The notes beneath the pieces are model-generated. The model was given only the letters and a program-made list of their open reading frames with translations, ran no database searches and was not told the DNA's origin. From an uncultured virus (IMG/VR IMGVR_UViG_2061766007_000472) (Duplodnaviria > Heunggongvirae > Uroviricota > Caudoviricetes), in the IMG/VR virus record IMGVR_UViG_2061766007_000472: DNA of 21,114 nt; one strand, 5' to 3'. A program made the translations under genes and the position numbers. Of the stretch, positions 278 to 21,005 are shown in pieces. The number at the start of each line of letters is the position of its first letter. Positions within the stretch are counted from its first letter, which is position 1.

Positions 278-1902
278 ACTGTTCCAAAATACATTTTTCT
301 ATTGTTCTGTCATAGAACTCAAGCCAAGGTCTTGATAATACTTTGTAACTTTTCTACTTGAGTCATTTGTTATTTTTAACATTTGTCCGAGGTTCACGGC
401 ATCTGTCTATTCAACCGCGTCAGCGACGTTTTTCACGTTCTACCCATACGCGTCTATATCTCCGTATTCTACTACATATATTGTTTTTGGATTGGTTTGT
501 CTATCATAAACGAGTTGCTCGTATTCATTCTATGATATTTTCACGACCGAAAGGTCGTTATAACCATCAACCTACTATTCATAGTTATTTATGTATATCT
601 TGTTGTCTACATTTACACTTATCGTGTTGTACACATCATCACTAATTGCAGATATGCACGAAGATAATCCAGACAGAGAAACAGATAGACTTCCGCTTAA
701 TTCAGAAACCCTTTCATCGAATTTAGAGTCTATTCCGACACTTACGTCCTGAACCGTCCTAAGGTTTACAGCGTCCATAGGTCCATTTGAGTCGCCTAAA
801 TTTATTATTCGTCTTCCATATGCGTTTAAAATTTCATAGTCAACAATATATATGGTTTTTGGATTTGTTTTCTCATTATATACAAGTTGTTCATATTCAT
901 CCTGTGTTAACCTTATTACTGAAAGGTCTTCAAAACCTTCAATGCCTTCATGTCCGTTTAATATGTATATCTTGTTGTCAACTTTTACGCTTATGGTATT
1001 ATAAACATCATCACTTAGAGACTAAACACACGATGAAATATTTTCAACTGATAAAGTCAACGAAGATAAATCCGAAGAAATTGTTGAAATCTGAGATGAT
1101 ATGCATGAAATCGAATTTGACAATTCTCCGCTCAAAAACTTAAACTTTCTATTAACATCAGCTTCAATTTCAGAACTCATGGTTTTAAGAGTACCAAGAT
1201 TTACAGCGTCCATTTCAGACGAAGCCGTTCCGACGTTTGAGACTCTTTGACCATANNNNNNNNNNNNNNNNNNNNNNNNNNNNNNNNNNNNNNNNNNNNN
1301 NNNNNNNNNNNNNNNNNGAGAAGCCTTGCGTATTCATCCAGTCCAAGTTTTACAACCGAGAGGTCTGAATAATCACTCAATCCGCAATCTGGATTTATGA
1401 TGAATATTTTCTTGTCTATCTTATCTGATACGTCCGACAAATTACAGCTTAGACCAGAAAGCTGGGAACTAATAGACGATACACAGTCACTTAACCCAGA
1501 AATCTAAGAATCAATAGACGACAGACTGTCGCTAAAATCTGATATCTATGAGTTGATTAACGTAAAATAATCACTTAGGCCAGAAATCTGGGAATCAATG
1601 GATGAAAGATGGTCCCCCAAATCAGAAAGTTCCCCTCCCAATGTAGACAATAGATTTGACAATCCGTCGATGGCTATGTTTGAAAGTTTAGAATCTACTA
1701 TGATTCCCCCACTAATAATACCATCGCGAATAATCGCATTTTCCGAGTTTACAACTCCGCTCAACTCCNNNNNNNNNNNNAACTCACCAAAAAATTTGTT
1801 TTCCCTGTTGCAGAGAATAACCTTCTGAGGGGAATGCCTGTCTTTTGTATCGACGTTAATCGATTCCTTTACCGCTCGGTTATATGGGTTGAAAGTTGCC
1901 AT
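278..1902 (-). CDS. Repeat-rich tail fibre/adhesin-like protein (>530 aa; TAG=Gln; 3' end lost in N gap)
   Basis: Continuous frame from ATG 1902 if TAGs at 1546, 1504, 1022, 575, 572, 530, 440, 407 and 299 are read through; one frame offset across the N gap near 1256-1317. Three repeats of D-K/N-KI(Y/F)I..DLSV.....EY..L(V....NPKTIY.V)...YG..(V/I).N......DAVNL. The DAVN part resembles the trimeric-adhesin (YadA/Hia) neck motif; Ser-rich coiled-coil-like spacers lie between repeats. Confidence 0.75.
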
Positions 1903-1936
1903 TATTCGGTCCTATTTCTTTATTATATTCTATGAG

Positions 1937-1971
1937 TATTTACAGCTTCCGAGACGTCCACCTCGTATAAT
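1937..1971. promoter_or_regulatory. Divergent promoter pair: GTAAATA on - (1937-1943) and TATAAT on + (1966-1971)
   Basis: Same arrangement recurs at four other divergent junctions; TATAAT is 6 nt before ATG 1978. Confidence 0.6.
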
Positions 1972-1977
1972 ATAATC

Positions 1978-2748
1978 ATGCCTGGATGCAGTAGACAGAA
2001 AAACCCAAGGGGAATAGAGATTTTGTTTGACGAAGATACACATAGGTATTCTTCGGTAATAAACGGAAAGGAAATAACATATGTTTCTGGTACGACCTTT
2101 GTTCATAAGTTCTTTCCCCAATTCGACCCGACTGGTGAAATAACGAAACGATGTGCCTTGAAAGAAGGAATAAGCGTTGAAGAAATCAGGGCAAAATGGA
2201 AAGCTAAGGGAGACGCATCATCTAAATTCGGAACCAAGATTCACGAAACAGTAGAAGACGTATTAAAAGGGAACATGCTCAGAAACAAGCCAGAAAACGA
2301 AAAAGAGCAAAAAACAATGCAGTCTGCCATAAAATTGGCAAAACTTATTCTGGAAAAAACCGAGATAATAGGAATAGAGAAGATAGTTTTCGATTCAGAT
2401 ATAAAAATAGCTGGGACGATGGACCTGTTTGCGAGGTCCAAGAAGAATGGAAGTCTTTGGATTTTCGACCACAAGACAAACGAACGAATAGACACTTTCA
2501 ACAGATGGAACAAGTTTGCACTTCATCCAATAGAAAATATCGCAGACACAAACTATTTCCAGTACGCATTGCAGTTGAATCTTTATGAAAACATACTCAA
2601 AAGAGCTGGATACGTTGACAAAAACGAGAAAATAGAAAAGGCCCTTTTCCATCTGACTGAATCTGGAAACAAGACATACCAGCTTCCAAATGCACAGTCT
2701 GAAATAGAGAGAATGATTGAGTATTTCTTGTCAGGAAAACTGAAATGA
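1978..2748 (+). CDS. PD-(D/E)XK exonuclease (phage RecB/Cas4-like family)
   Basis: Motifs FDEDTHRY, SGTT, GTKIHETVE, E..V....IAGTMDL, IFDHKT and YALQLNLY match this phage nuclease family. Confidence 0.85.
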   Translation: MPGCSRQKNPRGIEILFDEDTHRYSSVINGKEITYVSGTTFVHKFFPQFDPTGEITKRCALKEGISVEEIRAKWKAKGDASSKFGTKIHETVEDVLKGNMLRNKPENEKEQKTMQSAIKLAKLILEKTEIIGIEKIVFDSDIKIAGTMDLFARSKKNGSLWIFDHKTNERIDTFNRWNKFALHPIENIADTNYFQYALQLNLYENILKRAGYVDKNEKIEKALFHLTESGNKTYQLPNAQSEIERMIEYFLSGKLK

Positions 2749-3122
2749 AGATTTATACTAGTTATTTCGCCAATATAAGAAAAATACCGTTGAATTTTTC
2801 ACTTTTCTCAATAGCTGGGAAAACACCAGACTGGTTTCCTGGGGAACGTCTTACCATGTTCGCACCAAAATACTATTGGTGGAATGAATGGCATTCAACA
2901 TTCAAAGACGACTTAGAATCAGATAAATCCATTAAATTCTATAAAACGATGTACAATGAAACAGTTCTTTCGAAGATAGACCCGTTGTTGATGAAAGAGA
3001 TGTTTTATAAAATGGAGAAAACCCCCTGTCTTATGTGCTACGAGGGTCCAGGAAAATTCTGCCACAGGCATCTTGTATCTGATTTTCTTTTCAAAAACGG
3101 ATTTGAAGCAGAGGAGTATTAA
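2745..3122 (+). CDS. DUF488-like protein
   Basis: N-terminal IYTSYFAN and C-terminal CLMCYE....CHRHLV; ATGA overlap with the upstream gene. Confidence 0.7.
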   Translation: MKIYTSYFANIRKIPLNFSLFSIAGKTPDWFPGERLTMFAPKYYWWNEWHSTFKDDLESDKSIKFYKTMYNETVLSKIDPLLMKEMFYKMEKTPCLMCYEGPGKFCHRHLVSDFLFKNGFEAEEY

Positions 3123-3123
3123 C

Positions 3124-4068
3124 ATGAAAAACATCCTAATAACTGGCGGAAGAGGATTCATAGGATTCAATGCACTGAAATTATGGAAAAAATCAAGACC
3201 AGAGCTTAATTTTTTCAATATAGACGCAGAGACTTATTCCGATAAATTTCTAATAGACGAGAAAAATTCATGGCTTAATGAAAACAACGTACCTCATTTC
3301 ACATTGGACCTGGGTTCTTCGTTGGCACCAGAAGCCATAGATAGCATAATAGAGCTATTCCAGATAGACACGATATGCCATTTTGGTGCCGAAAGCCACG
3401 TCGANNNNNNNNNNNNNNNNNNNNNNNNNNNNGGAACAATAAACCTTCTTGAATCAATAAAGGGAAAAGACATTAGGTTTCATTATGTTTCAACTGATGA
3501 AGTATATGGAACTACTTTCCCTACAGATAATATAACCGAAAAATCACCATTCAATCCATCGTCTCCATATAGTTCTTCAAAGGCTTCCGCAGATTTTATA
3601 GTCCAGTCATACATGAAGAGTTTCGACATAAAAGCGTCCATAACCAGAAGCTCAAACAACTTCGGTCCTTATCAAAGCCCAGAGAAGTTTATCCCGACGA
3701 TTCTCAAAAAACTCGGAAAAGGGGAGAAGATACCCGTTTACGGAGATGGCCAGCAGTTCAGGCAATGGATTCCAGTTGACGACAATAACCTTGCGATTCT
3801 AGACGTAATGGAAAAAGAACCTGGTTCGATATGCAATGTGTCATCAAACAATTTAGGATACATGAAAAACATTGACGTAATCAGGATTTTTTCCGAAATG
3901 TATGGAAAAACAGTCGATGAATCCGTAGAATTTGTCGAAGACCGTAGAGCGCACGACATCTCTTACTACATTTTGAACTACAAAACCCCAGAATACGGAG
4001 AAACACACATAAAAGACATGTTTGTGAAAACCTATGAGTGGTATAGGGAACATGAAGAAAAGGTATAA
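3124..4068 (+). CDS. rmlB: dTDP-glucose 4,6-dehydratase
   Basis: ILITGGRGFIG (NAD binding), HFGAESHV, STDEVYG, PYSSSK (YxxxK), NNFGPYQSPEKFIP, YGDGQQFRQW. Start placed at ATG 3124. Confidence 0.9.
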   Translation: MKNILITGGRGFIGFNALKLWKKSRPELNFFNIDAETYSDKFLIDEKNSWLNENNVPHFTLDLGSSLAPEAIDSIIELFQIDTICHFGAESHVXXXXXXXXXXGTINLLESIKGKDIRFHYVSTDEVYGTTFPTDNITEKSPFNPSSPYSSSKASADFIVQSYMKSFDIKASITRSSNNFGPYQSPEKFIPTILKKLGKGEKIPVYGDGQQFRQWIPVDDNNLAILDVMEKEPGSICNVSSNNLGYMKNIDVIRIFSEMYGKTVDESVEFVEDRRAHDISYYILNYKTPEYGETHIKDMFVKTYEWYREHEEKV

Positions 4069-4069
4069 T
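4064..4069 (+). promoter_or_regulatory. TATAAT -10 element overlapping the rmlB stop, 6 nt before ATG 4076
   Basis: GGTATAATATT context as at 12786 and 18183 (GTATAATATT at 9892). Confidence 0.5.
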
Positions 4070-4075
4070 ATTCGC

Positions 4076-5125
4076 ATGGAAAACAAAATACGAATAACAA
4101 GGACCCTTCTGGACAAGAACAAAGACGAGCTCACCGAAGAGGAAAAGGAACTCGTTGACGAGTTCAACGAGGAAAGGTCCAGATTTGACAAAAGGATTTC
4201 CGAAGAAAACGAAAGAATAGCTTCGGAGTGCTCCATACTTTGCTCTGGTGGTGAACGGTGCCCCATTCCAGACTATGGATGGATTCGGCCTGTCAAGAGA
4301 CTATGCTACGCTCTGGAAAATTTGAATCATGATTTCAGAAAATACGGTATTTCTGTCGTACTTGACCAGACAAAGGAAAAATACGGAACTCTTAGATTCT
4401 ATACGCATATCAATACACGGGAAATTGGATTCTGGGGATTAATACTCAATCCACTGGACAAAATAGTGGAATGGATGTCGAACATCAACTTCGGAAGAAA
4501 ACTGGTTACGGACAAGCCAGAATACAGGACGGTCGAGTGGAGAGAAATAACAAAAGAGCAGTTCGACACCAAAACAAACGAATACGGAGTCCCGTTCGAC
4601 AAGTATGGAAACAAGGTCATTGTTGTAAGTTCGAAAAAAGAAGTAAAGAATCCAGAGAAGATTGAAAGAAATACGTATCTTGTCGAAGAAGACGGAAAAT
4701 TTTTCTATTCTTATACCTTATATCACATGGCCGAAACTCATGTTGAATACACGAAGCATTTTTTACTAAGGAAAATTCGTGATGCAATCAGACAGATTTC
4801 AACTTCACTTGACAGGTTCTACAAGGAACCAAAGATTCAAGCAGTGAAGATTCAGGAGATGGACTATAGGGTTGACGAACTTGTAAGAGATGCTGAAAGA
4901 GAGTGTATGAAGGTATGTCAGCATTGCGGTGCGGATTTCGGTGATTATTACAAGCAGTGTGAAACGCAGGGATGGTACATGTATCTCTGCCAGAGATGCG
5001 CCGACGCGACTGGAATGGAATACGTAATGGACGGAAAGCACTACATGGAAGGCGTCGACATATACCAGAACGAACCAAAGGAAAACCAAACTGAATCAAA
5101 CGAAAACGGAATCGGTGAAAAATGA
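4076..5125 (+). CDS. Conserved phage hypothetical protein with QxKEKxGxLRFY motif and C-terminal Cys cluster
   Basis: DQTKEKYGTLRFY and CQHCG...GW...LCQRC (possible Zn site). Start placed at ATG 4076 after TATAAT. Confidence 0.7.
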   Translation: MENKIRITRTLLDKNKDELTEEEKELVDEFNEERSRFDKRISEENERIASECSILCSGGERCPIPDYGWIRPVKRLCYALENLNHDFRKYGISVVLDQTKEKYGTLRFYTHINTREIGFWGLILNPLDKIVEWMSNINFGRKLVTDKPEYRTVEWREITKEQFDTKTNEYGVPFDKYGNKVIVVSSKKEVKNPEKIERNTYLVEEDGKFFYSYTLYHMAETHVEYTKHFLLRKIRDAIRQISTSLDRFYKEPKIQAVKIQEMDYRVDELVRDAERECMKVCQHCGADFGDYYKQCETQGWYMYLCQRCADATGMEYVMDGKHYMEGVDIYQNEPKENQTESNENGIGEK

Positions 5126-5550
5126 AAAGCAACGCAAAGCAACGCAATCTTGACAAAGAGAAGAAAAAACTCTGGAAAGAGTTCGAGAGGATTTACAGAA
5201 AATCCGTCAGTTCCGCAAAATCTCTTCTGAAAAAAGCGAAGGTCTTCCATTTCTTCGAGGAGAAGGACGGATGGGATGATACCCCACAGCCCATATCTGG
5301 ACATGTATGTGACGAGATGACACCAGAGGAAATCTTCGTATGGATGTACGAAAACGCAGTAAATCCAAGAAACATAAGGTCTCCGTACATCTACTCCGAC
5401 GAAGAGATAGAGTCATTCAGGAAGAATAGGAATCTCCTAAAAATCGAGGATTGGAAAAAGTCAATCGAGTTCTACAAAGAACAGATTAAGAAATACGAAA
5501 AGAGAATTTGCGACGTAGAACGGGAAATAAAGACTGGTAGGGACACATGA
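5122..5550 (+). CDS. Hypothetical protein
   Basis: 142-aa ORF coupled by ATGA overlaps at both ends. Confidence 0.7.
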   Translation: MKSNAKQRNLDKEKKKLWKEFERIYRKSVSSAKSLLKKAKVFHFFEEKDGWDDTPQPISGHVCDEMTPEEIFVWMYENAVNPRNIRSPYIYSDEEIESFRKNRNLLKIEDWKKSIEFYKEQIKKYEKRICDVEREIKTGRDT

Positions 5551-6227
5551 AAATCGAATTAGACGAAAATTTCTGGTATGATGAAAACGACGACAGGTCT
5601 CGTGTTTTCCAAGTATTTCCACAGGTGTTCGGAGACGACAGGGGCTCGTTCATCGAAACTTGGAAAAGCGTAAACGGAAACCTTCCAGACGAATTGAAGA
5701 AGTTTCCTTGGTTTTCACAGAACGGATGGATTAAACAGATGAACGTGTCGTACAGCAGGTCGAGCGTGATACGAGGTTGCCATGCCCAAGGCGGAGCTTC
5801 TTGTCAGGCAAAGCTAGTCTCGTCGTTGAACGGAAACATTTGGGACATAATAACAGATGCAAGGCCGCAGTCCGAGACTTTCATGATGACAAAGGTGTAC
5901 TTTCTTAACCCTAGACTCCAAAACAAGCTGTTTGTTCCGAGGGGTTTTCTTCATGCGTTTCTGACTGGAATAGACCTGAAAGACGACCAGAAGTACATAT
6001 TCAGCTACATATGCGATAATGTATACGACAAGACGAGCGAAATTGGAGTTTTTCCTCTTAACATCGTATTGCCAGCCTTCTCAAAATATTGTGAAAAATA
6101 NNNNNNNNNNNNNNNNNGTAATTCACCAATTACCTCAACGAGGGACACCAAAGGACAGGATGCCGATGATTTCTTCAAGTTAGTTAAGGAAGAATATAAC
6201 AAGAATTCAACTCTTTGGTATAGATGA
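5547..6227 (+). CDS. rmlC: dTDP-4-dehydrorhamnose 3,5-epimerase
   Basis: FGDDRGSFIETW, QMNVSYS...VIRGCHAQ, QAKLV and LFVPRGFLHAF are cupin RmlC motifs. Confidence 0.88.
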   Translation: MKIELDENFWYDENDDRSRVFQVFPQVFGDDRGSFIETWKSVNGNLPDELKKFPWFSQNGWIKQMNVSYSRSSVIRGCHAQGGASCQAKLVSSLNGNIWDIITDARPQSETFMMTKVYFLNPRLQNKLFVPRGFLHAFLTGIDLKDDQKYIFSYICDNVYDKTSEIGVFPLNIVLPAFSKYCEKXXXXXXXNSPITSTRDTKGQDADDFFKLVKEEYNKNSTLWYR

Positions 6228-6558
6228 ATGTATGTTCAGACAATTTAAATAAACTCCAACTGGAAAGACTTGAGGAAATTGAATACATGAAACTCATGTA
6301 TCAAAAAAGAATTTCCTTGGAAAAAGACCACGAGAGACATGAATTGGAAGAATGCATGAAATACGTATATCCAGAATATCTCAAAAAGAAAGCAAAAATT
6401 TTATCATATGACTTCTGCAAAATTGAAAAATACGAAGAGAAAAACCCAACAAAAAATGAAAATAAAACAATNNNNNNNNNNNNNNNNNNNNNTCTGTGAT
6501 TTTCGGGATATCAACTGCTATCACTTTAATATTGACATTTTTAGGTATATGTAAATAA
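6224..6558 (+). CDS. Hypothetical protein with C-terminal hydrophobic segment
   Basis: ATGA-coupled to rmlC; after the N gap another frame reads SVIFGISTAITLILTFLGICK-TAA(6556-6558). Confidence 0.55.
6551..6557 (+). promoter_or_regulatory. Putative late promoter GTAAATA
   Basis: Exact motif 22 nt upstream of ATG 6580. Confidence 0.45.
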
Positions 6559-6841: not shown

Positions 6842-9114
6842 TTATATATAAATTATTTCATCATAACAACGTATCTAAGAACCTGATTTCAGGCCCCATC
6901 TATCATATCCCATAAGTCTTACTCCCTATCCGTTCTTATTGATTTTAATTGTGAGTGGGTTATTTCCACCGAACGCATTCACGTCTATTGTTTCAATTGT
7001 ACTTGGAATAGAAATGGAAAGCAGATTTTCAACTCCGCCAAAAGCCAGCTCACCTATGGTTGTTACTCCATACGGTACGGTAAATTCGCCGCTAAGACCA
7101 GTGCAGTCTTCGAAAGCAGCTACACAAATACTTAATATGCTTGTTGGGAGTGATACACTCGAAAGACTTTTACAACTGTGAAATGTGCCAGAGTCAATAA
7201 TAGTAATCCCGTCTGGAATGGTTATTTCCGTAAGGCTGGAGCACCAATCGAAAGCCCCTCCTCCAATGCTCGTAACACTATTGGGTATATCTATGTTTTT
7301 CAGTTTTCCGCAGTACTAAAAAGCATCAAGCCCAATCTCGACAATGCTATCTGGCAATTTCACACACGATAGAGAACTACATGATTCAAATTGTTCCATC
7401 TAAACACACGAAATCCCGTTCTGTATTATCGCTGAAATCATGTTTTCGCAATGTGAAAAACATGCACGGCCAATGCTCAGAACACTGTTTGGAATGTTTA
7501 TAGACTGAATTCCATAGCAGTGGTAGAATGCCGCTTCTCCAATACAAGTGACACTATTCGGAATGTCAACAGAAGTAATGGACTTACATATTATGAACGC
7601 GCCACTTCCTATCTCCAATACTCCGTAAGGAATCTTTAACTATGGTATTTTTTCACAACCCGCGAATGAATTTTCTTCTATGCAGGAAATGCCATTTGGA
7701 ATGGAAATCGGGGTCTAAACGTTTTCACATCCAAAAAAGGCACTTTTTCCTATGCTCAACATGGTCTCTGGAAGAACCACGTCCCGTAATCTCGAACACG
7801 TATTGAATGCACTTTTTCCTATGCTGGACACCCCATTCGGGATTGTAAAAGAGGACAAATTCTGGCAAGCTTCGAACACCTCCTGACCAATGCTGTTCAC
7901 GTCCGTTCCAACCTGAACCGAATATACCTAAGTCCTGTCTATCCCGACATCCTACATAGCCTGTCTGTCGAGAACCCCAACTATATCGTGTTTTACTGGA
8001 TACTCCCCTATTACGCCGAATGTTGTCTCTTTCTCGCTTACTATCTAAATCACAACCCATTTTTCATCAGAAAAGTCGTAATTGAAGGAAAACTCTCCGT
8101 CCTTGCATGTGATATCTATTTCACGTGCGTCAGTCGTGAATGCACCATTGTCAAACCATTCTCTTATCTCATCGATTGACTAGTTCTGGAAAGTAAGGAA
8201 ACTCTTGTCTTGTTCCTGAACGAATCCAGTCCTAAAGAAAACTTCCTTTCCCATTCCAATTTGTCCGTTTTCTATGTATATTTCGTGCAGGTTTTCACAT
8301 CCGATAAAAGCATTTCGTCCAATAGTCTTCACGCTGCCTGGTATTATGACGCTTTTTACAAAATCGTTTCCACTAAATGCACTATTGGCTATTCCCCTTA
8401 CGCCTTCAAGGTCTATATTCTCAACATCGGAAATGCATGATACTGCCCATCCATCAACAAGAACCATTCCGTCTACAGTCTACTCGTCAAAAATGGATTC
8501 ACTGCATCTAGTGAAAACATCCGCTCTGATTTCCATTACGCTGTCTGGTATCTTGATTGAACTCAAGTTAGAACAACCGTAGAACGACATATGTGGAAGT
8601 TTTTTTATTCCATCCCTTAATGTAACATCTGTTATTTTCTGACAGTTTATAAAACAGCCGTTTGTCAAACCGACCACACCAGCCAAGTCCAATATTTCAT
8701 CGACGTTATCGTCATATTTGACGACCCATCCGTCAACTATCGACAATCCTGGAATTGAATGAGTATCGCACAGGTCTTGTGAACAGCGTAAAAACGAACC
8801 GTTCCCGATTTCNNNNNNNNNNNNNNNNNNNNNNNNNNNNNNNNNNNGCAGCTATTGACTCCTGATACTACAAGCACATCCGAACCTATTTCGATTCTTA
8901 TCACGTCTTTGGCCCATTCCTGGTTGGTTGAAACCCAAACCAGAAATCCGTTGTCCAAAAGCCATTCCCTGTCAAAAATACCCAGTATGTCATATTTTTC
9001 AACTGTTCCGTCGGCCATATAGAAAACAGTTTCTTTCGTACGTTCCCTATAGTCGATTTCAATCCACTTTGCGACGTCTCCGCCTGGATATCCCAAAAAT
9101 GCCTGCATTCCCAT
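6842..9114 (-). CDS. BspA/TpLRR-type leucine-rich repeat protein (~750 aa; TAG=Gln)
   Basis: ATG 9114 follows GAGGAAGG. After the gap at 8813-8847 one frame runs to TAA 6842-6844 through 11 in-frame TAGs (8480, 8180, 8045, 7952, 7928, 7715, 7640, 7400, 7316, 6926, 6875). Many IPxSVxxIGxxAFxxCxxL repeats continue across the TAGs. Confidence 0.88.
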
Positions 9115-9124
9115 AAAACCTTCC

Positions 9125-9850
9125 TCACTCTCCCCTGAACGCATTCAGGAACTTCATCACCGCTTTTCCAAGGAACTCGGCCTTGTTTTCGACTATGTTC
9201 GTGTTCGGCATCTTCGAAATGCTCTTCTCGAAGTCGTTGAACGTCTCCTCCAGGATTTCCCCATGAGTGTTCACGATGAAGCTCTTCGACTCGAGGATTC
9301 CGTTCACGAACCTGTTCGCATTTGATTTGTTGAATATCCCTATCGAAGGATTCAGAACGGTGTCGATGCATATCAGCTGGTAGTCCTCCACCACCCCAGT
9401 AGACTCGTTCACGTTCCCGACTCCCCTTGAAGAGTGCCCTATTGCCGTGTCGAACTGAAGAAGAGACTTCAGAAGGTCTCCGCACTTAGTTCCCTTTATC
9501 CCGAATTTCTCGTCAGACGCCAGCACCACCGAAGTTCCAATCCACGATTTGTTGTCTTCTTCAAGGGACAAGGTCCTTGCGCACACCCTGTCTGGGTTTA
9601 TCGTTATCTCGGAAGAATGTTCGAGCTCTTCAAGGGCGGTTTTCGTCTGGATTTTCTCCTTTATGAACTTGTCGACCGTCGGCTTAAGGTCCTCGTATGG
9701 ATATATTCTGTTGTTTCCGTTTTTTACGTCAGACGTGAGATACGTTCCCCTCATCATTATCGTCTGCGGCTTTGTCTGGTCGCCAGACTCCGTGATTACC
9801 TCGAAGTTCTCAAGGTTGGACTCTATTATTAGCTTGAGTTTCTTAGACAT
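9125..9850 (-). CDS. Prohead core protease, T4 gp21-like
   Basis: DVKNGNNRIYP, ALEELEHS (catalytic His), GHSSRGVG (catalytic Ser) and DTVLNPS correspond to the gp21-family motifs NxNxRxYP, GELxHP, GVSSRGxG and DxVxxPS. Confidence 0.9.
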   Translation of the reverse strand: MSKKLKLIIESNLENFEVITESGDQTKPQTIMMRGTYLTSDVKNGNNRIYPYEDLKPTVDKFIKEKIQTKTALEELEHSSEITINPDRVCARTLSLEEDNKSWIGTSVVLASDEKFGIKGTKCGDLLKSLLQFDTAIGHSSRGVGNVNESTGVVEDYQLICIDTVLNPSIGIFNKSNANRFVNGILESKSFIVNTHGEILEETFNDFEKSISKMPNTNIVENKAEFLGKAVMKFLNAFRGE

Positions 9851-9872
9851 TTGAAAATCCTGATGTTTTCCT

Positions 9873-11894: not shown

Positions 11895-12739
11895 CCCACC
11901 TTGACCGAGAAAACTGGTTTTCCACCGCTGCTCTTACTTTTTATCAAGTCGTTCTCTGAATACTGGGACTGTCCCATCTCTTCCACTTTTTCGGCAATCT
12001 TCGTCGCTATTGCCGCGACTATCATTCCCATCTGGACTCCTTGGACCTCGTCTCCTGGACATTCCAGTGAAAGATAAGTCTGTCCATCCTCAAGACCGTT
12101 AGTGGAGGAATTTCCAAAGCTCTTAAAGATTTTCTGCTTGTTTCCGAATGCACACTTTATTTCTATTTCCCTAAGGAATGGGTCCTTGTCGTGCATCTTT
12201 TGGAATTCGTCCACGACTTTGGCCATGAGTTCGGAGTTTTCCCCTCCTCCCTGTTCCGAATTTCCTCCCGCCTGGTCCATTCCCCTTACATTGACAGCGT
12301 AGAATCTTCTTTTTTGCTCTCCAGCCTTTCCTATATTTGCAAGCCCAATATCAGTTACGGTTTCATCAGTGAGTTTAATCCCTATGGAACCCAATATTTC
12401 ATTCATTTTCTCTATAAGCTCGTCTTTCTGGAAATCCTCCTGTGTAATGACTACCAGAAACTCCCTGGATGGAAGATTGTCTCTCGCTGATGCGAGGTCT
12501 GGATATCTTGTCAGAAGTTTCTCCTGGTTCGTCATATGCTGGTCAACGTTTCCAGAGATAAGCCATTCAAATTTAGATGTTTCCCCCTTAATCTTTTTTT
12601 GAAACGCGTCCGACCTCGCAAGGGCAATTACATGTGAAATCTTTTTTCCGAGTTCGCTTCCAACAGATGCAGTCCCCTCCGCAGTATCTCCCATTCCGAC
12701 TTCTGGTTCCCTATTTTTCTTCCTCGTGTTCTTTGTCAT
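11891..12739 (-). CDS. Hypothetical protein (putative late gene)
   Basis: 282-aa ORF with AGGA RBS, downstream of GTAAATA; no motif recognised. Confidence 0.75.
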   Translation of the reverse strand: MTKNTRKKNREPEVGMGDTAEGTASVGSELGKKISHVIALARSDAFQKKIKGETSKFEWLISGNVDQHMTNQEKLLTRYPDLASARDNLPSREFLVVITQEDFQKDELIEKMNEILGSIGIKLTDETVTDIGLANIGKAGEQKRRFYAVNVRGMDQAGGNSEQGGGENSELMAKVVDEFQKMHDKDPFLREIEIKCAFGNKQKIFKSFGNSSTNGLEDGQTYLSLECPGDEVQGVQMGMIVAAIATKIAEKVEEMGQSQYSENDLIKSKSSGGKPVFSVKVG

Positions 12740-12791: not shown

Positions 12792-12798
12792 ATTCCCT

Positions 12799-14129
12799 AT
12801 GAATTACACATATTTTGTAGACCTTGGAAGCATATTCTTCATAACGTTCATAATCGGGGCCTTCCTGGAATCAATGGTGGTCAATCTACTGCAATGGATA
12901 AATTCCGACAAAATGGACCTTAAGAACAGGATTTCTAAGATACGTGGTCTCGGAGAGCTTGCAGGCAAGCTCTTTTCCCAAAGAAAAGTTACCAAGGCGA
13001 TGAAGTACAAGGAAACCTCAGAGGGGTTTTCTGGAATGACTTCCTCGATACAATCTGGAATATCAACCATTTTGGTCATTTTCGGGATACTTCCATTCAT
13101 AGTCTGGTCAATCCACTCTTTCGTATTTCCCGATTCGAGAATGGTATGGAGCTGGATTCTGGCTTCGATTGTCACATCGTCTGCCGCCACGTTATTTGGA
13201 ATCCCATTTGGACTATACAATGATTTCGTGATTGAAGACAGATTCGGATTCAACACAAAAACAAGAAAAACCTTTTTTCTCGACGTGTTAAAGGGATTCG
13301 TCATTGGTTCCCTGATTACGGTCGGACTTCAGCTTGTTCTTGATTTTGCGTTGACTAGATTTGGAAAACTTGACGTCTACGGGGTCATTTGCTGCATAAT
13401 TACGCTGTTCTTCATAGCGAAAGTCATACAATGGTTTTCCGTAAACGTAATGTTTAGGATGTTCAACAAATTCAAGCCCCTTCAAGATAAAATGTTAAAG
13501 AAGAAGATAGACGAACTCTGCAGAAGATGTGGATTCAAGGTCTCTGGAATAGAGGTCATGGACGCAAGCAAGAGGACGAAACACTCAAATGCGTTCATAT
13601 GCGGCCCGTTTTGGAAAAAGAGGATAATCCTTTTCGATACAATATTCAAGACGCTTACCCATGACGAGATTCTTGGAATCATAGCACATGAAATAGGTCA
13701 CGGGAAACTACGCCACCTGGCAATAACGGATATGTTGATGATGATTTGGATGACGTCTTTCACTGCAATCTCCTTTGTTCTCATGAAAACCCCTTATTTC
13801 TATTCGTCCTTTGGCTACACGTGGGTAAACGAAACCAACATCGAGGAGAACTACATAATAGGGTTCAGCCTTGCCTCTGCATTCATATCCTCGATATCGT
13901 GGATTGTCACCCCAGTTTCAAACTGGATTTCGAGGAAANNNNNNNNNNNNNNNNNNNNNNNNNNNNNNNNNNNNNNNNNNNNNTTGAAAACGCTATTCTC
14001 AAGCTTACGTCCGAAAACCTGTCCGACGTCGCCCCGCATCCAGCATACGAGTTCGTAAACTACACACATCCATCGATTTACAACAGGATAACGGCAATCA
14101 GGAAAAATGAAAACCAAGAAAAGAGTTGA
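12799..14129 (+). CDS. M48 family integral membrane zinc metallopeptidase (Ste24/CAAX prenyl protease-like)
   Basis: Multiple TM segments, IEDRFGFN, MDASKRTKHSNAF, RIILFDT, AHEIGH (HExxH); after the N gap ENLS...PHPAYEFVNYTHP...RI in a second frame. Confidence 0.9.
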
Positions 14130-14460
14130 TTACGGAAAGATGGCTGAATTTCTAGCAAAATCCCTTCAGAGGTTCTATCCAGACAAACACATATTCGTCG
14201 GAACGAAATGGACAAAGGGACAAGAGGCGTGTTGGTCTCACATATCGGCAAGCAGAAAAATCCTTAAATCTGTTGACGAAGAATATGAATCCAGCCCAGA
14301 AATGTTTGGAACTATTTATCCCCTGTATTGCGGGAGCCTGGGAAAAACAATGGAAGACTCAATGAAAAATCTCGTGGAAGAATTCATCAAGGACAGAGAA
14401 AACAAACTTGGGATAATGAACATTAACGAAATACTCATGAACATTGATATTTTAGGATAA
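14107..14460 (+). CDS. Hypothetical protein
   Basis: 117-aa ORF with AGGA RBS, in a run of co-oriented genes. Confidence 0.7.
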   Translation: MKTKKRVDYGKMAEFLAKSLQRFYPDKHIFVGTKWTKGQEACWSHISASRKILKSVDEEYESSPEMFGTIYPLYCGSLGKTMEDSMKNLVEEFIKDRENKLGIMNINEILMNIDILG

Positions 14461-14462
14461 AA

Positions 14463-15062
14463 ATGAAAAATGCAAGACCGAGATTCTTCGACGACTGTTT
14501 TCACATCGGGATACGGAAATGCGTTGAATTCGAGAAATACATAGATATAGTCGAGAACCGTTCATCCGTTAATCCGTCGAAGAAATTTCCAGAAAAGCAC
14601 CATATAGTACCAAGGGAGTGGCTTTCGTGGAGAGTCAATGGATTCAATTTTGTCACCGAGGACGAAAACAACGTAGTGTACCTTTCCGTAAGGTCCAAGA
14701 TTATGGCAATGCAATACCTTGCGCTGGTGTTCCTAGAGATGGGCGATTCCGTGACGTACAAGAACATTACAAAGGCAATTTCAAGAAGATACCATATGAA
14801 GTGGTACGATTTCTGGAAAAACCCATATATGGACAGAAAACTCGTCGATGCCCTGGTTGAGAAGAGAATATCCGAACTAAACGGGAAGAAGACCAAATAC
14901 GGAGACGAATACCTTTCCAGGTGCATGGAAATAATGAATTCAGAAAAAGACAAGGACTCCGCGTTCGAGAAAGTAAGGTCCGAAATGGGATTTTCGTTCA
15001 CCAGAAGGGCCCTGGAAGAACAACTAAAACGAAGATTCGGGAAAGACTACACGAACAAATAA
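14463..15062 (+). CDS. Degenerate HNH endonuclease-like protein
   Basis: EKHHIVPREW...DENNVVYLSVRSKIMAM aligns with HHIxP...NLIRLTPKEHxxAH of the HNH genes in this window, but the later His residues are missing. Confidence 0.6.
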   Translation: MKNARPRFFDDCFHIGIRKCVEFEKYIDIVENRSSVNPSKKFPEKHHIVPREWLSWRVNGFNFVTEDENNVVYLSVRSKIMAMQYLALVFLEMGDSVTYKNITKAISRRYHMKWYDFWKNPYMDRKLVDALVEKRISELNGKKTKYGDEYLSRCMEIMNSEKDKDSAFEKVRSEMGFSFTRRALEEQLKRRFGKDYTNK

Positions 15063-15078
15063 CGGATTAAGGTGGATA

Positions 15079-15540
15079 ATGGATTTCAGACATAGGATAT
15101 ATAGAGCCATCAGGCTTCTTGGGTCGGACTACATCATAAGAATATATGGAGATTCCCTGCTAAAGAACACATTGGACATAGAAAAGACCCTAGGGATGAA
15201 ACTGTGCTATTCAACTGATTTCAGCCACGTTGAATCCGACAAGCTACCGTTCTGTTTCGTATGCGGGAAATCCATATACACGTTTTCAAACGAAAACCTC
15301 GAAAACATCGCAAGCCTGTTTTTCTCATATCCAAGCATATTCGAGGGAAATTTCGTCGTAAAGGAGACTGTTCCAGAAAACAGGAATCTTTTTCTGTACA
15401 GCGCAGTAAAGTATTTCCTTAAAAAATTCTCGCATGGAGGAAAACTCATCTGCGGAAAAGACTCCAGTTCAGAGATATACATACCAGAGTTCTCGACAAT
15501 TCCAGAGTTCAAAATGAAAATGGAGGTTTCTGGGATATGA
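15079..15540 (+). CDS. Hypothetical protein, IPxF...E(L/F)KMK C-terminal family
   Basis: Ends YIPEFSTIPEFKMKMEVSGI. Confidence 0.7.
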   Translation: MDFRHRIYRAIRLLGSDYIIRIYGDSLLKNTLDIEKTLGMKLCYSTDFSHVESDKLPFCFVCGKSIYTFSNENLENIASLFFSYPSIFEGNFVVKETVPENRNLFLYSAVKYFLKKFSHGGKLICGKDSSSEIYIPEFSTIPEFKMKMEVSGI

Positions 15541-15923
15541 TAGACACGATGGAGTCCGTACTTGAGTCAGTTGAGGTTCTGGAAAGAAAACTTGGATTGC
15601 ATTTTCTGGTCTTCAAATCGACAAACCAAACGTTTGTAATTCTTTCGTCAAGCAAATCCGTTGAAAACATCCTCTATGTATTCTCTGGAATAGAAGGAGC
15701 AGAGGTGGAACTAATATGGCCAGCCAGAGAATTGGAAATGTTCTCTGACGTATCCAGAATAAATGCGAAGGATATGTGGAAATCCCTTGTCGGACCAATA
15801 AACTATATAAACCGAGGGTTTTCTGTGTACAAAAAGAAATCGTGCGGAACGTTCGAGAAATATACTGACATCCCTTCTTTTTCATGCACTTCAGAATTAA
15901 AGATGAAATTGGACATATGCTGA
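15537..15923 (+). CDS. Hypothetical protein, IPxF...E(L/F)KMK C-terminal family
   Basis: ATGA overlap; ends DIPSFSCTSELKMKLDIC. Confidence 0.7.
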   Translation: MIDTMESVLESVEVLERKLGLHFLVFKSTNQTFVILSSSKSVENILYVFSGIEGAEVELIWPARELEMFSDVSRINAKDMWKSLVGPINYINRGFSVYKKKSCGTFEKYTDIPSFSCTSELKMKLDIC

Positions 15924-16612
15924 AAGCAAAAAACAAGTCAAAGAAGAAAAAATTCAAAAGCATAGCCAGGATGACAATGACCGACAGGCTCATGTTGTTC
16001 TTCTCTGGAGTTTGGACTTCGTCGATAGCAATGTCAGTTGTGAACGAGAAAATCTCAATGTCCATAATTTTTGCGTCCATTCTCATATTGTCCATGTCGT
16101 TCATCTCTCTTAAGCACATCTTTCGAGGAAGCCCCCAGTTTGACGGAACATGCAATTTCTACGACAAGGACGTGTCCAGGCTGTATTCAGACGACGAGAC
16201 CCTGTGCGTCCTGTGCAAGTTCTTCGGGATGTTCCTCGGGGTGTACACGGATTCGTTTTCTGGCATGAAGAGCAAAAGACTCGCCCTTTTCTGGCCGAAC
16301 GGGGACTTGTGCATGAAAAAATCCGAAATTTTAAACTGCAATGGAGACGAAGTGTCCATCATGGACCCAATTTCAACCCCATTCACAAGCTTTGACTTTT
16401 CTGAAATAAATTCTGAACGAGCATTGAGGTTGATAAAAACCATTGTTTCGAGCACGACAATAGGTGGGTCGAAAATACTAAACTACGACGGTACGATGGA
16501 AGCGGACATCCCAGAATTCAAGACGGCAAACGAACTCAAGATGAAGCTCGACATAAACGGAGCAAAGACATATGTACGAGATTTACACCAAAAACAAAAA
16601 AATCGTAAATAA
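15917..16612 (+). CDS. Hypothetical membrane protein, IPxF...E(L/F)KMK C-terminal family
   Basis: Basic N-terminus, two hydrophobic segments, DIPEFKTANELKMKLDING near the C-terminus. Confidence 0.7.
   Translation: MLKAKNKSKKKKFKSIARMTMTDRLMLFFSGVWTSSIAMSVVNEKISMSIIFASILILSMSFISLKHIFRGSPQFDGTCNFYDKDVSRLYSDDETLCVLCKFFGMFLGVYTDSFSGMKSKRLALFWPNGDLCMKKSEILNCNGDEVSIMDPISTPFTSFDFSEINSERALRLIKTIVSSTTIGGSKILNYDGTMEADIPEFKTANELKMKLDINGAKTYVRDLHQKQKNRK
16605..16611 (+). promoter_or_regulatory. Putative late promoter GTAAATA
   Basis: Exact motif 5 nt before ATG 16617. Confidence 0.45.
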
Positions 16613-16616
16613 AAAC

Positions 16617-17238
16617 ATGAAAAACCCGATTAAAGCCATTGGCAAGTGGACATACGGAATTTGGTCAAAATTCCTCGACATAATAGGAGACATAAAGGTT
16701 TTCAAGTGGCCGATGTTCATAGTCTACGACCCGTCGTACTTCCAGATGACTGGGCCGATGATTCAGGAGGCGATGAAAATCCTTAGGCCAGGGGACATAG
16801 TCCTGAGGGGATACGACCACTACCTCGACGGGCACTTCATAAATGGCGACTACTCCCACGGGTCGGTCTGCACTGGACCAGAGGAGATTACCCACGCCGT
16901 GTCACCGAAAGTGTGCACGGTNNNNNNNNNNNNNNNNNNNNNNNNNNNNNNNNNNNNNNNNNNNNNNNNNNNNNNNNNNNNNNNNNNNNNNNNNNNNNNN
17001 NNNNNNNNNNNNNNNNNNNNNNNTTCGGCTTCAACACTGGGGACCCAAACGAGGTGTACTGCTTCGAGCTCGCCGCAAGGTCGTATCCGTCGCTGTCATT
17101 CAAGAAATACACCGTAAAATATCTCCTCGGCCTCGTNNNNNNNNNNNNNNNNNNNNNNNNNNNNNNNNNNNNNNNNNNNNNNNNNNNNNNNNNNNNNNNN
17201 NNNNNNNNNNNNNNNNNNNNNNNNNNNNNNCCTCCTAA
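16617..17238 (+). CDS. Permuted papain-like NlpC/P60 enzyme (YiiX/YebB-like); two N gaps, end uncertain
   Basis: LRPGDIVLR...YSHG (His) precedes VYCFELA (Cys), the permuted order typical of this family. Confidence 0.7.
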
Positions 17239-17342: not shown

Positions 17343-18137
17343 TCATCGTCCCTAAGACGAGTAACCCATGTACAGCCCCTCTTCCTTCGGAATGTAGACT
17401 TTGTGTGTCTTGTTTTCGCGTCCGTCCCTCCAGTCCCGCAGTGCCAGAAAGTTAAAATACGCATTTCCATTGTCGTCTCCGTATTTTCCAAGCAGTTCAT
17501 CCACTGCGGATTTTGCGTCTTCGAGACTGTCTCCCTCGTATACATGAACCACTTCACCAGTGGATTCGGCCCCTATCGACACGTCATACGCTGGATGGTC
17601 GGAATACATGTGCTCGCCCAAGAACTCATGTGCCTCTTCAAAGTCGGCAAACGAGGTCCAATGGCAATCTCCCCCGTTTTCAAAGAGGACGAACTGCGGG
17701 TCTTCCACCTTTCTTCCATAAGGGGAAGTCATGTCCGTCCTGGCATAGTCTCTCAAAAATTGGTAGAAATCCTTTTCATTTCCCTTGTCCAGAACCCAGC
17801 TCTTGTACGCCCTTCCATCCTTGTCGTTATGGTCGCAAGCTGGCCATTCCTCTTTACCTATAGTGTCGAAGAACTTCTGGATGCACTCCCTTGCCTAAAC
17901 GTCCTTTTCGCTGTCGGAAAGGAAGAAGTTGTCGTAGAATCCATACATCATCAGGAGGAAAAATTCGTCGCTTCCGTACATTTTCTCGTTCTTTAGGTCG
18001 AAAAACGTCCATTCGTTGTGGTACATCGTCTTGAGCTCTTCGTCGTTGAAACCACCAGAAACCCCTCCGTTGTTTTTCATCTCTTCGCTCTCAAAAAGCA
18101 TCGCCCAGTGCCTGATGAGTCCTTTGTCTATGTCCAT
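17343..18137 (-). CDS. Acidic hypothetical protein (264 aa; TAG=Gln), putative late/virion protein
   Basis: ORF-track pieces 17895..18137 and 17352..17756 are the same frame; reading through TAG 17895 and 17352 ends at TGA 17343-17345. Confidence 0.7.
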
Positions 18138-19303: not shown

Positions 19304-19956
19304 TCGGCGTATTTCCAGACGAAGCCGTTGTGGGTTTTCATCCTTCCTGCGCAACAATGCGAAATGTCGCTCCTATGTGAATTGGTTTTAACCGCAGCTT
19401 CTTTAAGGGATGGATATTCCGCCACAAAAGTACCGTCAAGTGAATATTGAAGCACTTTCTTGAAAAACTTCACCCTTACCTCTGGATTTTTCATCGGGTT
19501 TTTGTCTCCCATAAACTTCGCCCTTACCTCTGGATTTTTCATCGGGTTGTTGTCTCCACTTATCCTCTTCACGAAATCGACCCTCAGCTCCTCGTATTTG
19601 TCGGAAATCCATCCAAGCTCAGCGTCCCCTTTCCATTCGATTGCATTTACCATTCTCCAAAACGCATAGCACATGCTGTTTTCCGAGTTTTTGTCGTCCG
19701 TCTCGTGCTTGTAGTGCTGCCACAGAAAAAAATGCGCCCTGACGTGCTCCTTCGGAGTAAGCCGTATCAGATTGCTCGGGTCGTTCGCAAGCTCTGGGGA
19801 AATGCTTTTCGGCCTTATGTGATGGACTTCGAACGGCACTCCGTCTGGAATCGGATTCCTCCTCCTGTAGTCTATCAGTTCCCGATACTGCTCCAGGTAA
19901 GTCTTTCCGTTCGTCTCGAAAATAACTTGTCTCGTCTCTTCTTCCATGTCTCTCAT
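19304..19956 (-). CDS. HNH homing endonuclease with NUMOD3-like repeats and a NUMOD1 domain (3' end in gap)
   Basis: EVHHIRPKS...NLIRLTPKEHVRAH; GDxNPMKNPEVR x2; VLQYSLDGTFVAEYPSLKEAA...ISHCC...GFVWKY. Confidence 0.85.
19473..19558. repeat. 48-bp-period coding tandem repeat
   Basis: cccttacctctggatttttcatcgggtt(t/g)ttgtctcc starts at 19473 and 19521. Confidence 0.85.
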
Positions 19957-19974
19957 ATCATTTATTGGCTTTAT

Positions 19975-20004
19975 ATTATACTGGGACGTGCGGGCGGGTA
20001 AATA
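19975..20004. promoter_or_regulatory. Divergent promoter pair: TATAAT on - (19975-19980) and GTAAATA on + (19998-20004)
   Basis: Inverted copy of the arrangement at the other junctions. A + strand TATAAT (20003-20008) also overlaps it. Confidence 0.55.
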
Positions 20005-20012
20005 TAATCATC

Positions 20013-21005
20013 ATGCTACTAGAACAATACATAACCCAACTCAGGGAAGAGGTCCTCAAAACCGAAACCCAGAAATACAGGCTAGAGGACGAGAAGCAAA
20101 CCGTTCATCTCCAGGAATACAACAGGATAATCGAGAACAGGGAAAAGGACCCGATTCTTCCCAGGATACCCTGGCTCGGGAAATACGTCGGGGAATACAG
20201 CGAGAAGCACCACATAAGGCCGAAGTCGCTCTTTCCAGAACTCGCCCACGACCCGAAGAACATAATCAGGCTCCTCCCAAAAGAGCATTTCGCCGCGCAC
20301 TACCACATCTGGATGCACTACAGGGAGACTGGAAACAGGTTCATGGAGGAGAAGATGTGCTGTGCGATAATGAACATGAAGAAAAACCTGAACAACAAAT
20401 ATTTAAAGAAATTCGACATATAGACTGACATAGACTGGCTTTCCGAGGAATACCAGCAGGCAAAGAAAAGGCTGTCGCAGCTAAGGTCCACACCAGTATT
20501 GAAATACGATTCAGACGGAAACTTCCTCGCGGAATACGATTCCATGGGATGCGTGGCGAGCGAATTTGGAATGAAGAACGTCCCAGACAAGTTCAAGACC
20601 AGCATGAAGACTGGCACGATGTTCAGGGGATACGCATGGAGATACAAGACATCCGACGAAATACCGAATAAGATAGAAGTCGTCAAGGAAGAGTTGGCAG
20701 TTTCGACAATTCCAAAAAACTCAAAGCCTATACTGAAATACAGCCTGGACGGAGAGTTTCTTGAGGAATATCCTTCAATAACACACGCCTCATCTAATAA
20801 GACCATGCATAGGACAATACAATGCGCATGCAAAGGAAAAAGACTAAGTGCATATGGTTTCATATGGAGATTCAAGGAAAACGAGGATTTTCCAAGAAGA
20901 ATAGAAGTTTCAGCAGAACAGAAGAAAACATCAATTCTACATGCAGAAAGAACCAGGGCCGTGTTGAAACTTGACATGAATGGAAATGTGCTTGAAAGAT
21001 TCGAT
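20013..21005 (+). CDS. HNH homing endonuclease with multiple NUMOD1 domains (TAG=Gln at 20421; 3' end in gap)
   Basis: EKHHIRPKS...NIIRLLPKEHFAAH, then TAG 20421-20423 in frame with three [VI]LK[YL]xxxGxxLxx[YF] NUMOD1 units. The text after the TAG (IDWLSEEY) matches LGWISDKY of the uninterrupted paralog. Confidence 0.85.

Follow-up and report, generated by a model that had tools for sequence, protein, structure and literature searches.

TAG is most likely read as glutamine in structural and lysis genes of an uncultured phage from the cattle gut

Several genes of an uncultured virus (IMG/VR record IMGVR_UViG_2061766007_000472) are interrupted by TAG codons and are otherwise continuous, which raises the question of whether this codon carries a sense meaning and, if so, which amino acid it specifies. 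The window (i.e. the whole stretch of 21,114 nucleotides analyzed here) is a fragment of an uncultured phage from the cattle gut. Its GC content lies at 35–45% (about 40%) and the continuity of the scaffold is poor, with 14 N runs amounting to 1058 N in all and frame changes across three of these runs. The hallmark genes terminase and major capsid protein are absent from the window. Its features are as follows:

2..1902 (−): tail-fiber-like gene built of repeated modules; an N run at 1256-1317 divides it into the frame pieces 1318-1902 and 2-1255
1978..6499 (+): seven-gene block free of in-frame TAG, reading alike in code 11 and code 15 (PD-(D/E)XK exonuclease, DUF488, NAD-dependent sugar dehydratase/epimerase, dTDP-4-dehydrorhamnose 3,5-epimerase, two unknowns, and a 91-aa ORF)
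6842..8812 (−): BspA-type leucine-rich-repeat (LRR) protein with 11 TAG, terminator TAA
8848..9144 (−): TAG-free open frame upstream of the LRR gene and in a different frame, with an N run (8813-8847) between the two
9125..9850 (−): T4 gp21-type prohead (head maturation) protease, TAG-free (Pfam Peptidase_S77, 2e-15; PHROG 207, 6e-31)
10164..11894 (−): 576-aa protein with nucleotidyltransferase, SleB-like cell-wall hydrolase, and LysM parts, terminator TGA
11891..12739 (−): 282-aa protein with no function assigned, TAG-free, with TAG 12797 upstream of its ATG
12799..17117 (+): second block with no in-frame TAG (M48 (Ste24-like) membrane peptidase and six small unknown genes)
17343..18137 (−): 264-aa protein with no function assigned, with an internal TAG at 17895 and TAG 17352 near its TGA
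19965..21095 (+): HNH/NUMOD homing endonuclease with one TAG at 20421-20423 (PHROG 655, E = 6e-15)

Between positions 278 and 20423 we count 28 in-frame TAGs in five genes, the same number as in the original prediction. Nine of these fall in the tail fiber (1546, 1504, 1022, 575, 572, 530, 440, 407, and 299), 11 in the gene for the LRR protein (8480, 8180, 8045, 7952, 7928, 7715, 7640, 7400, 7316, 6926, and 6875), five in the LysM protein (11751, 11475, 10821, 10623, and 10212, i.e. residues 48, 140, 358, 424, and 561), two in the 264-aa gene, and one in the HNH gene. The tail-fiber frame holds two more (191-193 and 122-124) beyond a further N run at 196-277, bringing the total to 30. No in-frame TAA or TGA occurs in the TAG-bearing frames, and the homology-supported frames show no frameshifts outside N runs. 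As had been claimed, every gene with a complete 3′ end terminates in TGA (11) or TAA (6), with one caveat: TAG 17352-17354 of the 264-aa gene lies three codons before TGA, where the called proteins of both homologs end, and it could still act as a stop.

Homology runs through the interrupted frames. The tail-fiber gene matches PHROG tail-fiber families (E about 3e-12) and Pfam YadA_stalk (2.3e-9), and the LRR gene has a Pfam LRR_5 match (E = 6e-108) that extends across its TAGs. The 576-aa protein carries the Pfam domains LysM (3e-11), Hydrolase_2, and NTP_transf_2; it has 125 homologs, the best being 66% identical over the full length, and it aligns end to end with 62 uninterrupted homologs. 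Among the related loci examined, 17 of 22 have orthologs with in-frame TAG and no other stop, with counts of up to 17 (L049) and of 11 in L029, which sits on a 432-kb contig. In the syntenic relative L022, a 279-aa gene with 6 TAG weakly resembles (31%) the short, TAG-free open frame at 8848..9144; the prohead protease is 90% identical in L021–L023. We consider it beyond reasonable doubt that TAG is a sense codon in this phage. A check of coding density under codes 11 and 15, which the original prediction had called for, was run as a cruder comparison of ORF coverage and did not tell the two codes apart.

Judging from sequence comparisons, TAG is most likely read as glutamine (NCBI table 15), as first proposed, and this reading is supported by family columns, subclade columns, paralog pairs, and the tRNA-CUA of a recoded relative. 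The alignments point to glutamine more through the orthologs of relatives than through the window's own columns. Specifically, across 54 TAG columns of the LysM-protein family, Q is enriched 4.5-fold and reaches a log-likelihood ratio of +48.9, against −11.9 for E (the next best), −18.0 for K, and −18.5 for S; leaving out the window's columns gives +47.9 for Q. In a control, the same method recovered 20 of 20 sense amino acids. Two near-invariant Q columns (74/75 and 71/73) carry TAG in relatives, and the relatives' codons at TAG columns are enriched in CAG (64) over CAA (29). In the close subclade (the window, L022, and L024; 11 sites), analyzed with comparators at least 55% identical and with controls that were correct in 299–300 of 300 draws, Q scores −28.5, K −31.9, and E −33.0; Q is ahead of K by 3.4 log units, or about 30:1. 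One TAG column of L022 is Q in all 13 close homologs.

The repeats inside the tail fiber point the same way. The three paralogous pairs that had been put forward are present, with TAG 1504 facing CAG 1588, TAG 530 facing CAG 902, and TAG 440 facing CAA 1247, and all six codons lie on the minus strand at these lowest coordinates. The flanks of 1588 and 1504 are identical at 14 of 17 amino acids vs only 38 of 51 nucleotides, so the peptide has been conserved while the DNA drifted; because this drift is synonymous, the flanks appear to be under purifying selection. At tail-fiber site 258, Q is the plurality residue among homologs (45/102).

The window's own homolog columns, taken alone, are indecisive and do not separate Q from S, E, or K. 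At 11 such sites the scores are 2.7 for S, 2.1 for Q, 1.1 for E, and 0.9 for K, and in a control with 11 random true-Q sites Q was called in 496 of 500 draws. Q accounts for only 6.6% of homolog residues at the five LysM sites; true-Q sites reach 22.8%, and the background is 3.8%. In the 264-aa protein, both homologs have S opposite the internal TAG. The LRR homologs are uninformative on the amino acid because they are LRR proteins of a generic kind, about 30% identical. One argument of the original prediction, that NPQI is the common form of a LysM-domain motif matched by one TAG, does not hold: the column contains S 13, G 9, N 9, and Q 7 times among 62 homologs, with Q found in the closest relatives only. 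As a separate observation, the window's TAGs, unlike its CAA/CAG glutamines, occupy polar columns that are unusually free of constraint and rich in K, E, S, and Q, residues that are encoded by one-step neighbors of TAG.

The alternative that survives best, improbable as we judge it, keeps TAG as a sense codon and gives it another polar residue, with Lys the strongest candidate, followed by Glu or Ser, and with the suppressor derived from the corresponding tRNA. Scored against close orthologs, the five LysM sites give −13.26 for K and −13.36 for Q, and K occupies sites 358 and 424 in P0015, the closest fragment (73% identical). The distant columns favor S, Q, E, and K about equally, and AAG, GAG, and TCG are each one mutation away from TAG. 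Against Lys stands its deficit to Q in the subclade tally, and against both Lys and Ser their negative ratios in the family tally; the paralog pairs show Q codons in three of three cases and the L022 column is uniformly Q, which argues against any other polar residue. We know of no phage in which TAG is reassigned to Lys, Ser, or Glu. Recoded gut and rumen phages are described with Gln only in the published accounts considered here.

If TAG means glutamine, decoding would fall to an amber-suppressor tRNA (anticodon CUA) that the phage encodes outside the window and GlnRS charges. With UAG translated, termination would be left to UGA and UAA. There are no tRNA genes within the window. A recoded relative (G001) has a 91-kb record whose sole tRNA carries the anticodon CUA together with U1:A72 and G73; this relative is only 38% identical, in one protein, and the U1:A72 and G73 combination is not specific because it is found in 3 of 37 tRNAs examined. 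The flanks of 43 related loci contain no tRNA-CUA, and genes with an RF-1 domain (PF00472) or for GlnRS (PF00749) number zero in the records of five relatives, four of which are fragments. Accessory genes such as RF2 and GlnRS often accompany a code change in phages but are not required for it.

That TAG is a true stop, with expression through read-through that is leaky or depends on the host (via near-cognate tRNA-Gln or an amber suppressor of the host) and no change in the phage code, seems to us very unlikely, and less likely than another amino acid. Such read-through would agree with the lack of a suppressor tRNA, RF2, or GlnRS in the window and the relatives' records (bar the one tRNA-CUA) and with the one TAG that coincides with the C-termini of homologs; a suppressor is also missing from some recoded phages, according to a survey of rumen jumbo phages (PMC13037316, as far as considered here). 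However, with 11 or 12 TAGs in a single structural gene, leaky read-through would leave almost no full-length protein. Moreover, TAG is the sole terminator in none of the 17 genes, it is the commonest Gln codon in the tail fiber (9 vs 10 for CAA and CAG together), and a tRNA-CUA is present in a recoded relative.

The idea that the TAGs arose through errors of assembly or consensus calling, or by nonsense mutation in pseudogenes of a defective phage, draws on the N runs and the frame changes across three of them and has next to no probability, given that the interruptions are TAG in 30 of 30 cases and never TAA or TGA, that frameshifts are confined to N runs, that other assemblies yield identical sequence, that the TAG-only pattern recurs in orthologs on many independent contigs (in part at shared columns), and that purifying selection on the paralogous flanks argues against decay. 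Specifically, Logan contigs from two runs, which may be the source sample, equal window positions 8848-13938 with 0 differences, and a run of another study contains a strain about 98–99% identical, which spans two of the TAG sites and has no listed change at either.

The TAGs are unevenly distributed among the genes. Minus-strand genes contain 29 TAG vs 76 CAA/CAG, and plus-strand genes except the HNH gene contain 0 vs 56 (Fisher p = 1.6e-6). The minus-strand carriers are tail, LRR, lysis, and unknown genes. The same strand also has TAG-free genes, among them those for the prohead protease and the 282-aa protein. The relative L022 has the same strand partition, and there the gene set of the 1978..6499 block is likewise TAG-free. 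Apart from one homing endonuclease, the recoded codon is used only in structural and lysis genes on the minus strand, and both plus-strand blocks read identically in either code. This distribution fits the published late-gene recoding pattern (Borges et al. model), in which late genes would be untranslatable until the suppressor is made; the layout is consistent with this model and may reflect such a timing function. Taken together, UAG read as glutamine, a suppressor encoded outside the window, and use of the codon in late genes form what we regard as a highly probable explanation.

TAG-to-Gln recoding was said at the outset to be established in gut phages, and it is indeed documented in both gut and rumen phages; recoding of late genes in these phages, jumbo phages included, has already been published. 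Code-15 gut phages include Lak megaphages, crAss-like phages, and the Garnet, Amethyst, Jade, and Sapphire clades (bioRxiv 10.1101/2021.08.26.457843; PMC8346664; PMC9523058). As far as these accounts describe them, the window resembles such phages in that in-frame TAG aligns with Gln and genes end in TGA or TAA, in that recoding concentrates in structural and lysis genes and leaves other modules compatible with the standard code, and in having a homing endonuclease with a recoded stop, a relative with tRNA-CUA, and an animal-gut origin. Unlike them, the window and its LysM protein have no DNA or protein match among 50,697 deposited phage records. Recoding in the window is also light (0–12 TAG per gene), and its GC content differs from the about 26% given for the low-GC Lak clades in which Q was called (genome ~540 kb). 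Three family members at 24–27% GC (L026, L031, and L038) are only 34–40% identical.

The rumen jumbo-phage survey, at least in the part used here, assigns the code by coding density alone; it lists 8.75% of rumen jumbo phages as alternatively coded, with tRNA-CTA suppressors and recoding in hallmark genes (PMC13037316). As with those phages, relatives of the window lie on large contigs (199–433 kb), and the phage's clade includes genomes of several hundred kilobases and is present in runs labelled bovine gut metagenome.

The suggestion of a further recoded T4-like lineage stands for the recoding and only in part for the T4 affinity. The window shares with T4-like phages the S77-family head maturation protease (T4 gp21, Pfam PF03420), its sole marker of this kind. 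The nearest deposited relatives of this protease, at most 33% identical, come from T4-like cyanophages and from phages of Escherichia, Klebsiella, Vibrio, and Aeromonas. The window contains no further T4 core gene; gp23, gp20, gp17, and the others would lie outside this fragment. To our knowledge, no T4-like phage is recoded.

In one orthologous gene, the number of TAGs ranges from 0 to 17 across the clade. A speculative and rather doubtful reading is that the window represents a branch with light recoding within a large, uncultured clade of gut jumbo phages, and that selection for a translational timing gate, not neutral CAG-to-TAG drift, introduced TAG into late genes. If so, TAG would have been placed where any polar residue is tolerated, and the clade would form a natural series of how a code change begins.

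With this window, a TAG-recoded lineage without a deposited relative joins the recoded gut phages. The finding reproduces the late-gene recoding bias and opens no new question; its practical weight lies in the annotation of this lineage. Annotation under code 11 fragments the tail-fiber, LRR, and lysis genes, and code 15 restores them. A public gene call (P0244, 67 aa and 100% identical to part of the tail fiber) stops just short of TAG 575-577, and for the LysM protein the closest homolog in the protein collection, 343 aa long, is a piece starting just after the position of a window TAG.

Under the standard code (code 11, TAG as stop), the minus strand of the window is broken up, and long frames appear once TAG is read as sense. 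The window (21,114 bases, GC 35-45%) is phage DNA with the following features:

2-1902, minus strand: tail-fibre-like gene, a long frame with TAG as sense
6842-8812, minus strand: BspA-type LRR protein (Pfam LRR_5, E = 6e-108)
9125-9850, minus strand: gp21-type prohead protease
10164-11894, minus strand: 576-aa protein with nucleotidyltransferase, SleB-like hydrolase and LysM domains (the LysM protein)
minus strand: 282-aa protein, function not assigned
minus strand: 264-aa protein, function not assigned
plus strand: exonuclease, DUF488, two dTDP-sugar enzymes, M48 peptidase, small uncharacterized genes and HNH endonuclease

The window contains 14 N runs totaling 1058 N. Across 3 of these (1256-1317, 8813-8847, and 13939-13983) the frame shifts while the protein plainly goes on, in the tail fibre, the LRR gene, and the M48 peptidase, respectively. 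As such, these runs are not length-preserving, and genes across them were read in pieces rather than as one frame. The M48 peptidase is a phage-encoded, Ste24-like membrane metallopeptidase (12799-14129; Pfam Peptidase_M48_N and M48, E about 1e-20) with its C-terminus in the frame of 13746-14129, and its place beside the LysM gene is conserved in L021, L023, and L025, which are relatives. At 15079-16612 (plus strand), three neighboring small genes (153, 128, and 242 aa) share the C-terminal motif (I)PEF/SEL-KMK-L/M-D/E-I/V and look like tandem paralogues.

We find that TAG is a sense codon in the window. From 278 to 20423, the original prediction counted 28 in-frame TAGs spread over five genes, and our recount agrees (9 in the tail fibre, 11 in the LRR gene, 5 in the LysM protein, 2 in the 264-aa gene, and 1 in HNH); the tail-fibre frame beyond an N run holds two more, for a total of 30. 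No in-frame TAA or TGA occurs in the TAG-bearing frames, and the 17 complete genes all terminate at TGA (11) or TAA (6), as had been predicted. Pseudogene decay or consensus errors would not yield 30 TAGs with zero other stops and zero frameshifts. Logan contigs from two runs, possibly of the source sample, show 0 differences over 8848-13938, and a strain about 98-99% identical from another study's run (X3) extends over two TAG sites, 10212 and 10623, neither of which is altered among the differences listed (71 more lie beyond those listed). The listed runs matching the window include no RNA runs. Elsewhere, position 12798 is C instead of T in contigs of two independent runs (X3 and X4), which removes the minus-strand TAG at 12797-12799; this TAG precedes the ATG start of the 282-aa gene and is probably non-coding.

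Comparisons with relatives lead to the same conclusion. The LysM protein has 125 homologues among protein clusters, the best being 66% identical over its full length, and it aligns end to end with 62 uninterrupted homologues. Among 22 related loci of metagenomic or viral origin, 17 carry an orthologue interrupted by TAG alone, with as many as 17 TAGs in L049, 11 in L029 (a 432-kb contig), and 10 each in L030, L036, and L041. The remaining five loci (L021, L025, L034, L046, and the partial L045) have orthologues without TAG, and the four complete ones have a GC content of 49-55%. In heavily recoded relatives, summed ORFs of at least 100 aa grow more than threefold with TAG as sense; for example, those of L029 increase from 3938 to 13,335 aa. 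As a standard-code test, the high-GC locus L021 (protease 90% identical, 0 TAG in its orthologue) has about six real genes, in which TAG is used neither as sense nor as stop, a pattern compatible with either code. Coding density, the check suggested originally, gave a divided answer in the window. ORF coverage does not discriminate (0.868 under code 11, and 0.918, 0.927, and 0.907 with TAG, TAA, or TGA as sense), since gaps are filled by N runs and spurious ORFs; TAG is favored only by the mean length of ORFs (140 to 203 aa) and by the largest of them. The nucleotidyltransferase-SleB-like hydrolase-LysM fusion is itself a conserved family, present on contigs as long as 433 kb, in phages whose GC content ranges from 24 to 55%, with 0-17 TAGs per orthologue.

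One TAG may be an exception. The codon at 17352-17354 lies three codons ahead of the TGA of the 264-aa gene, at the C-terminal end of the called proteins of both homologues (P0391 and P0392). Either this TAG may still be a working stop, or code-11 gene calling cut both homologues at a TAG.

Glutamine (code 15) is the best-supported assignment for TAG, with evidence from the family of the LysM protein. A Codetta-like tally over 83 distinct sequences with TAG masked (54 TAG columns, 99 cells) finds Q 4.5-fold above background, with a log-likelihood ratio of +48.9 for Q; E (-11.9), K (-18.0), and S (-18.5) are all negative, and dropping the columns of the window leaves Q at +47.9. The same statistic recovers 20 of 20 sense amino acids. 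Two near-invariant Q columns (74/75 and 71/73) hold TAG in relatives, and codons of relatives at TAG columns are CAG-enriched (64 CAG vs 29 CAA, with a background of 202 vs 150). In the close subclade (the window, L022, and L024; 11 sites), Q scores -28.5, K -31.9, and E -33.0, controls for this tally being correct in 299-300 of 300 draws, and one L022 TAG site faces Q in 13 of 13 close homologues.

Paralogous positions within the tail fibre agree with this reading. All six codons quoted in support of the original prediction are in place on the minus strand, and the pairs they form (TAG 1504 with CAG 1588, TAG 530 with CAG 902, and TAG 440 with CAA 1247) hold, the flanks of the first being identical at 14 of 17 aa and 38 of 51 nt. 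Q is the plurality residue at tail-fibre site 258 (45/102, from 149 cluster representatives) and the most enriched residue over seven tail-fibre sites together (3.5-fold). The 7826 matches of the LRR gene, all generic BspA proteins about 30% identical, were excluded from column inference because repeats make the register unreliable.

Homologue columns at the window's own TAG sites, on the other hand, do not set Q apart. The 11 sites with such columns tally S 2.7, Q 2.1, E 1.1, and K 0.9; by comparison, 11 random Q sites coded by CAA or CAG lead to a Q call in 496 of 500 draws. At the five LysM sites, orthologues at least 55% identical score K at -13.26 and Q at -13.36. Specifically, sites 140 and 561 have Q in the closest relatives, while sites 48, 358, and 424 show K/E/R, K/T, and D/S, respectively, and K occupies both 358 and 424 in P0015, the closest fragment at 73% identity. 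The internal TAG of the 264-aa protein is opposite S in both homologues. The original prediction had also taken NPQI as the common LysM state, which does not hold: Q occupies only 7 of 62 positions in that column, and only in the closest relatives. The window's TAG sites are unusually variable polar positions. Those at 278-1213 and 10164-11894 are clearly less conserved than its CAA/CAG sites (mean per-site Q log-likelihood ratio 0.19 vs 1.08), and K, E, S, and Q, residues of one-step codon neighbors of TAG, abound in their columns. We regard glutamine as highly probable, if short of certain, with the honest qualification that for this phage the call leans on relatives and on its own paralogues, not on homologue columns at its own sites.

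Identity elements of tRNA-Gln in Escherichia coli include U1:A72 and G73. In G001, a 91-kb IMG/VR record of a recoded relative (LysM protein 38% identical, orthologue with 10 TAGs), the sole tRNA folds into a normal cloverleaf with a CUA anticodon and has both U1:A72 and G73; the combination of these two is present in 3 of 37 tRNAs examined, so it is suggestive of Gln identity but not specific to it. An Rfam search around this gene matches only the tRNA itself, with no ribozyme beside it. The window contains no tRNA gene, the flanks of 43 related loci yielded none with a CUA anticodon, and a search of the IMG/VR records of five relatives (four of them fragments) found neither an RF-1-domain gene nor GlnRS. 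We infer that this phage would encode its own suppressor tRNA.

TAG usage differs significantly between strands. Minus-strand genes use 29 TAGs vs 76 CAA/CAG, and plus-strand genes except HNH use 0 vs 56 (Fisher P = 1.6e-6); in the C-terminal piece of the tail fibre, TAG (9) nearly equals CAA plus CAG (10). On the minus strand, TAG is absent from the prohead protease and from the 282-aa gene. In L022, a syntenic relative whose protease is 90% identical, TAG is partitioned in the same way. Two HNH/NUMOD homing endonuclease genes occupy 18733-21095 in a back-to-back arrangement on opposite strands; one carries an in-frame TAG, and the other, which is interrupted by a 486-base N run, has none where it can be read. 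The distribution in the window matches the pattern described by Borges and colleagues (bioRxiv 10.1101/2021.08.26.457843), in which structural and lysis modules are written in the alternative code, the remaining modules stay standard-compatible, and a homing endonuclease carries recoded stops.

TAG-to-Gln recoding itself is already known in gut phages. Lak megaphages, detected in cow rumen also, are described with tRNA-CTA and RF2 (PMC8346664), recoding in crAss-like phages has been validated by metaproteomics (PMC9523058), and, according to a 2026 survey, 8.75% of rumen jumbo phages use alternative codes (PMC13037316). Membership in Lak is unlikely given the GC content of the window, which is related to contigs of 199-433 kb. 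The T4-like affiliation proposed originally fits the gp21-type protease and extends to that one gene, which is at most 33% identical to those of T4-like phages. Given this divergence, and since neither the window (megablast) nor the LysM protein (tblastn) matched any of 50,697 deposited phage records, the lineage is one without a deposited relative; scans of IMG/VR for close relatives with single proteins found nothing.

The observation behind the original prediction is thus confirmed and its interpretation supported. In public code-11 gene calls, proteins of this lineage appear as pieces delimited by TAG positions. For example, P0244 (67 aa) is identical to tail-fibre residues 146-212, and P0015 covers 343 aa of the closest LysM homologue and starts at the first Met past the window's TAG at aa 140. 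The recoding seen here adds to a known phenomenon and, while no surprise for the specialist, is of use for annotation. Borges and colleagues propose that recoding sets the timing of late expression (bioRxiv 10.1101/2021.08.26.457843), and by analogy it may do so in this phage.
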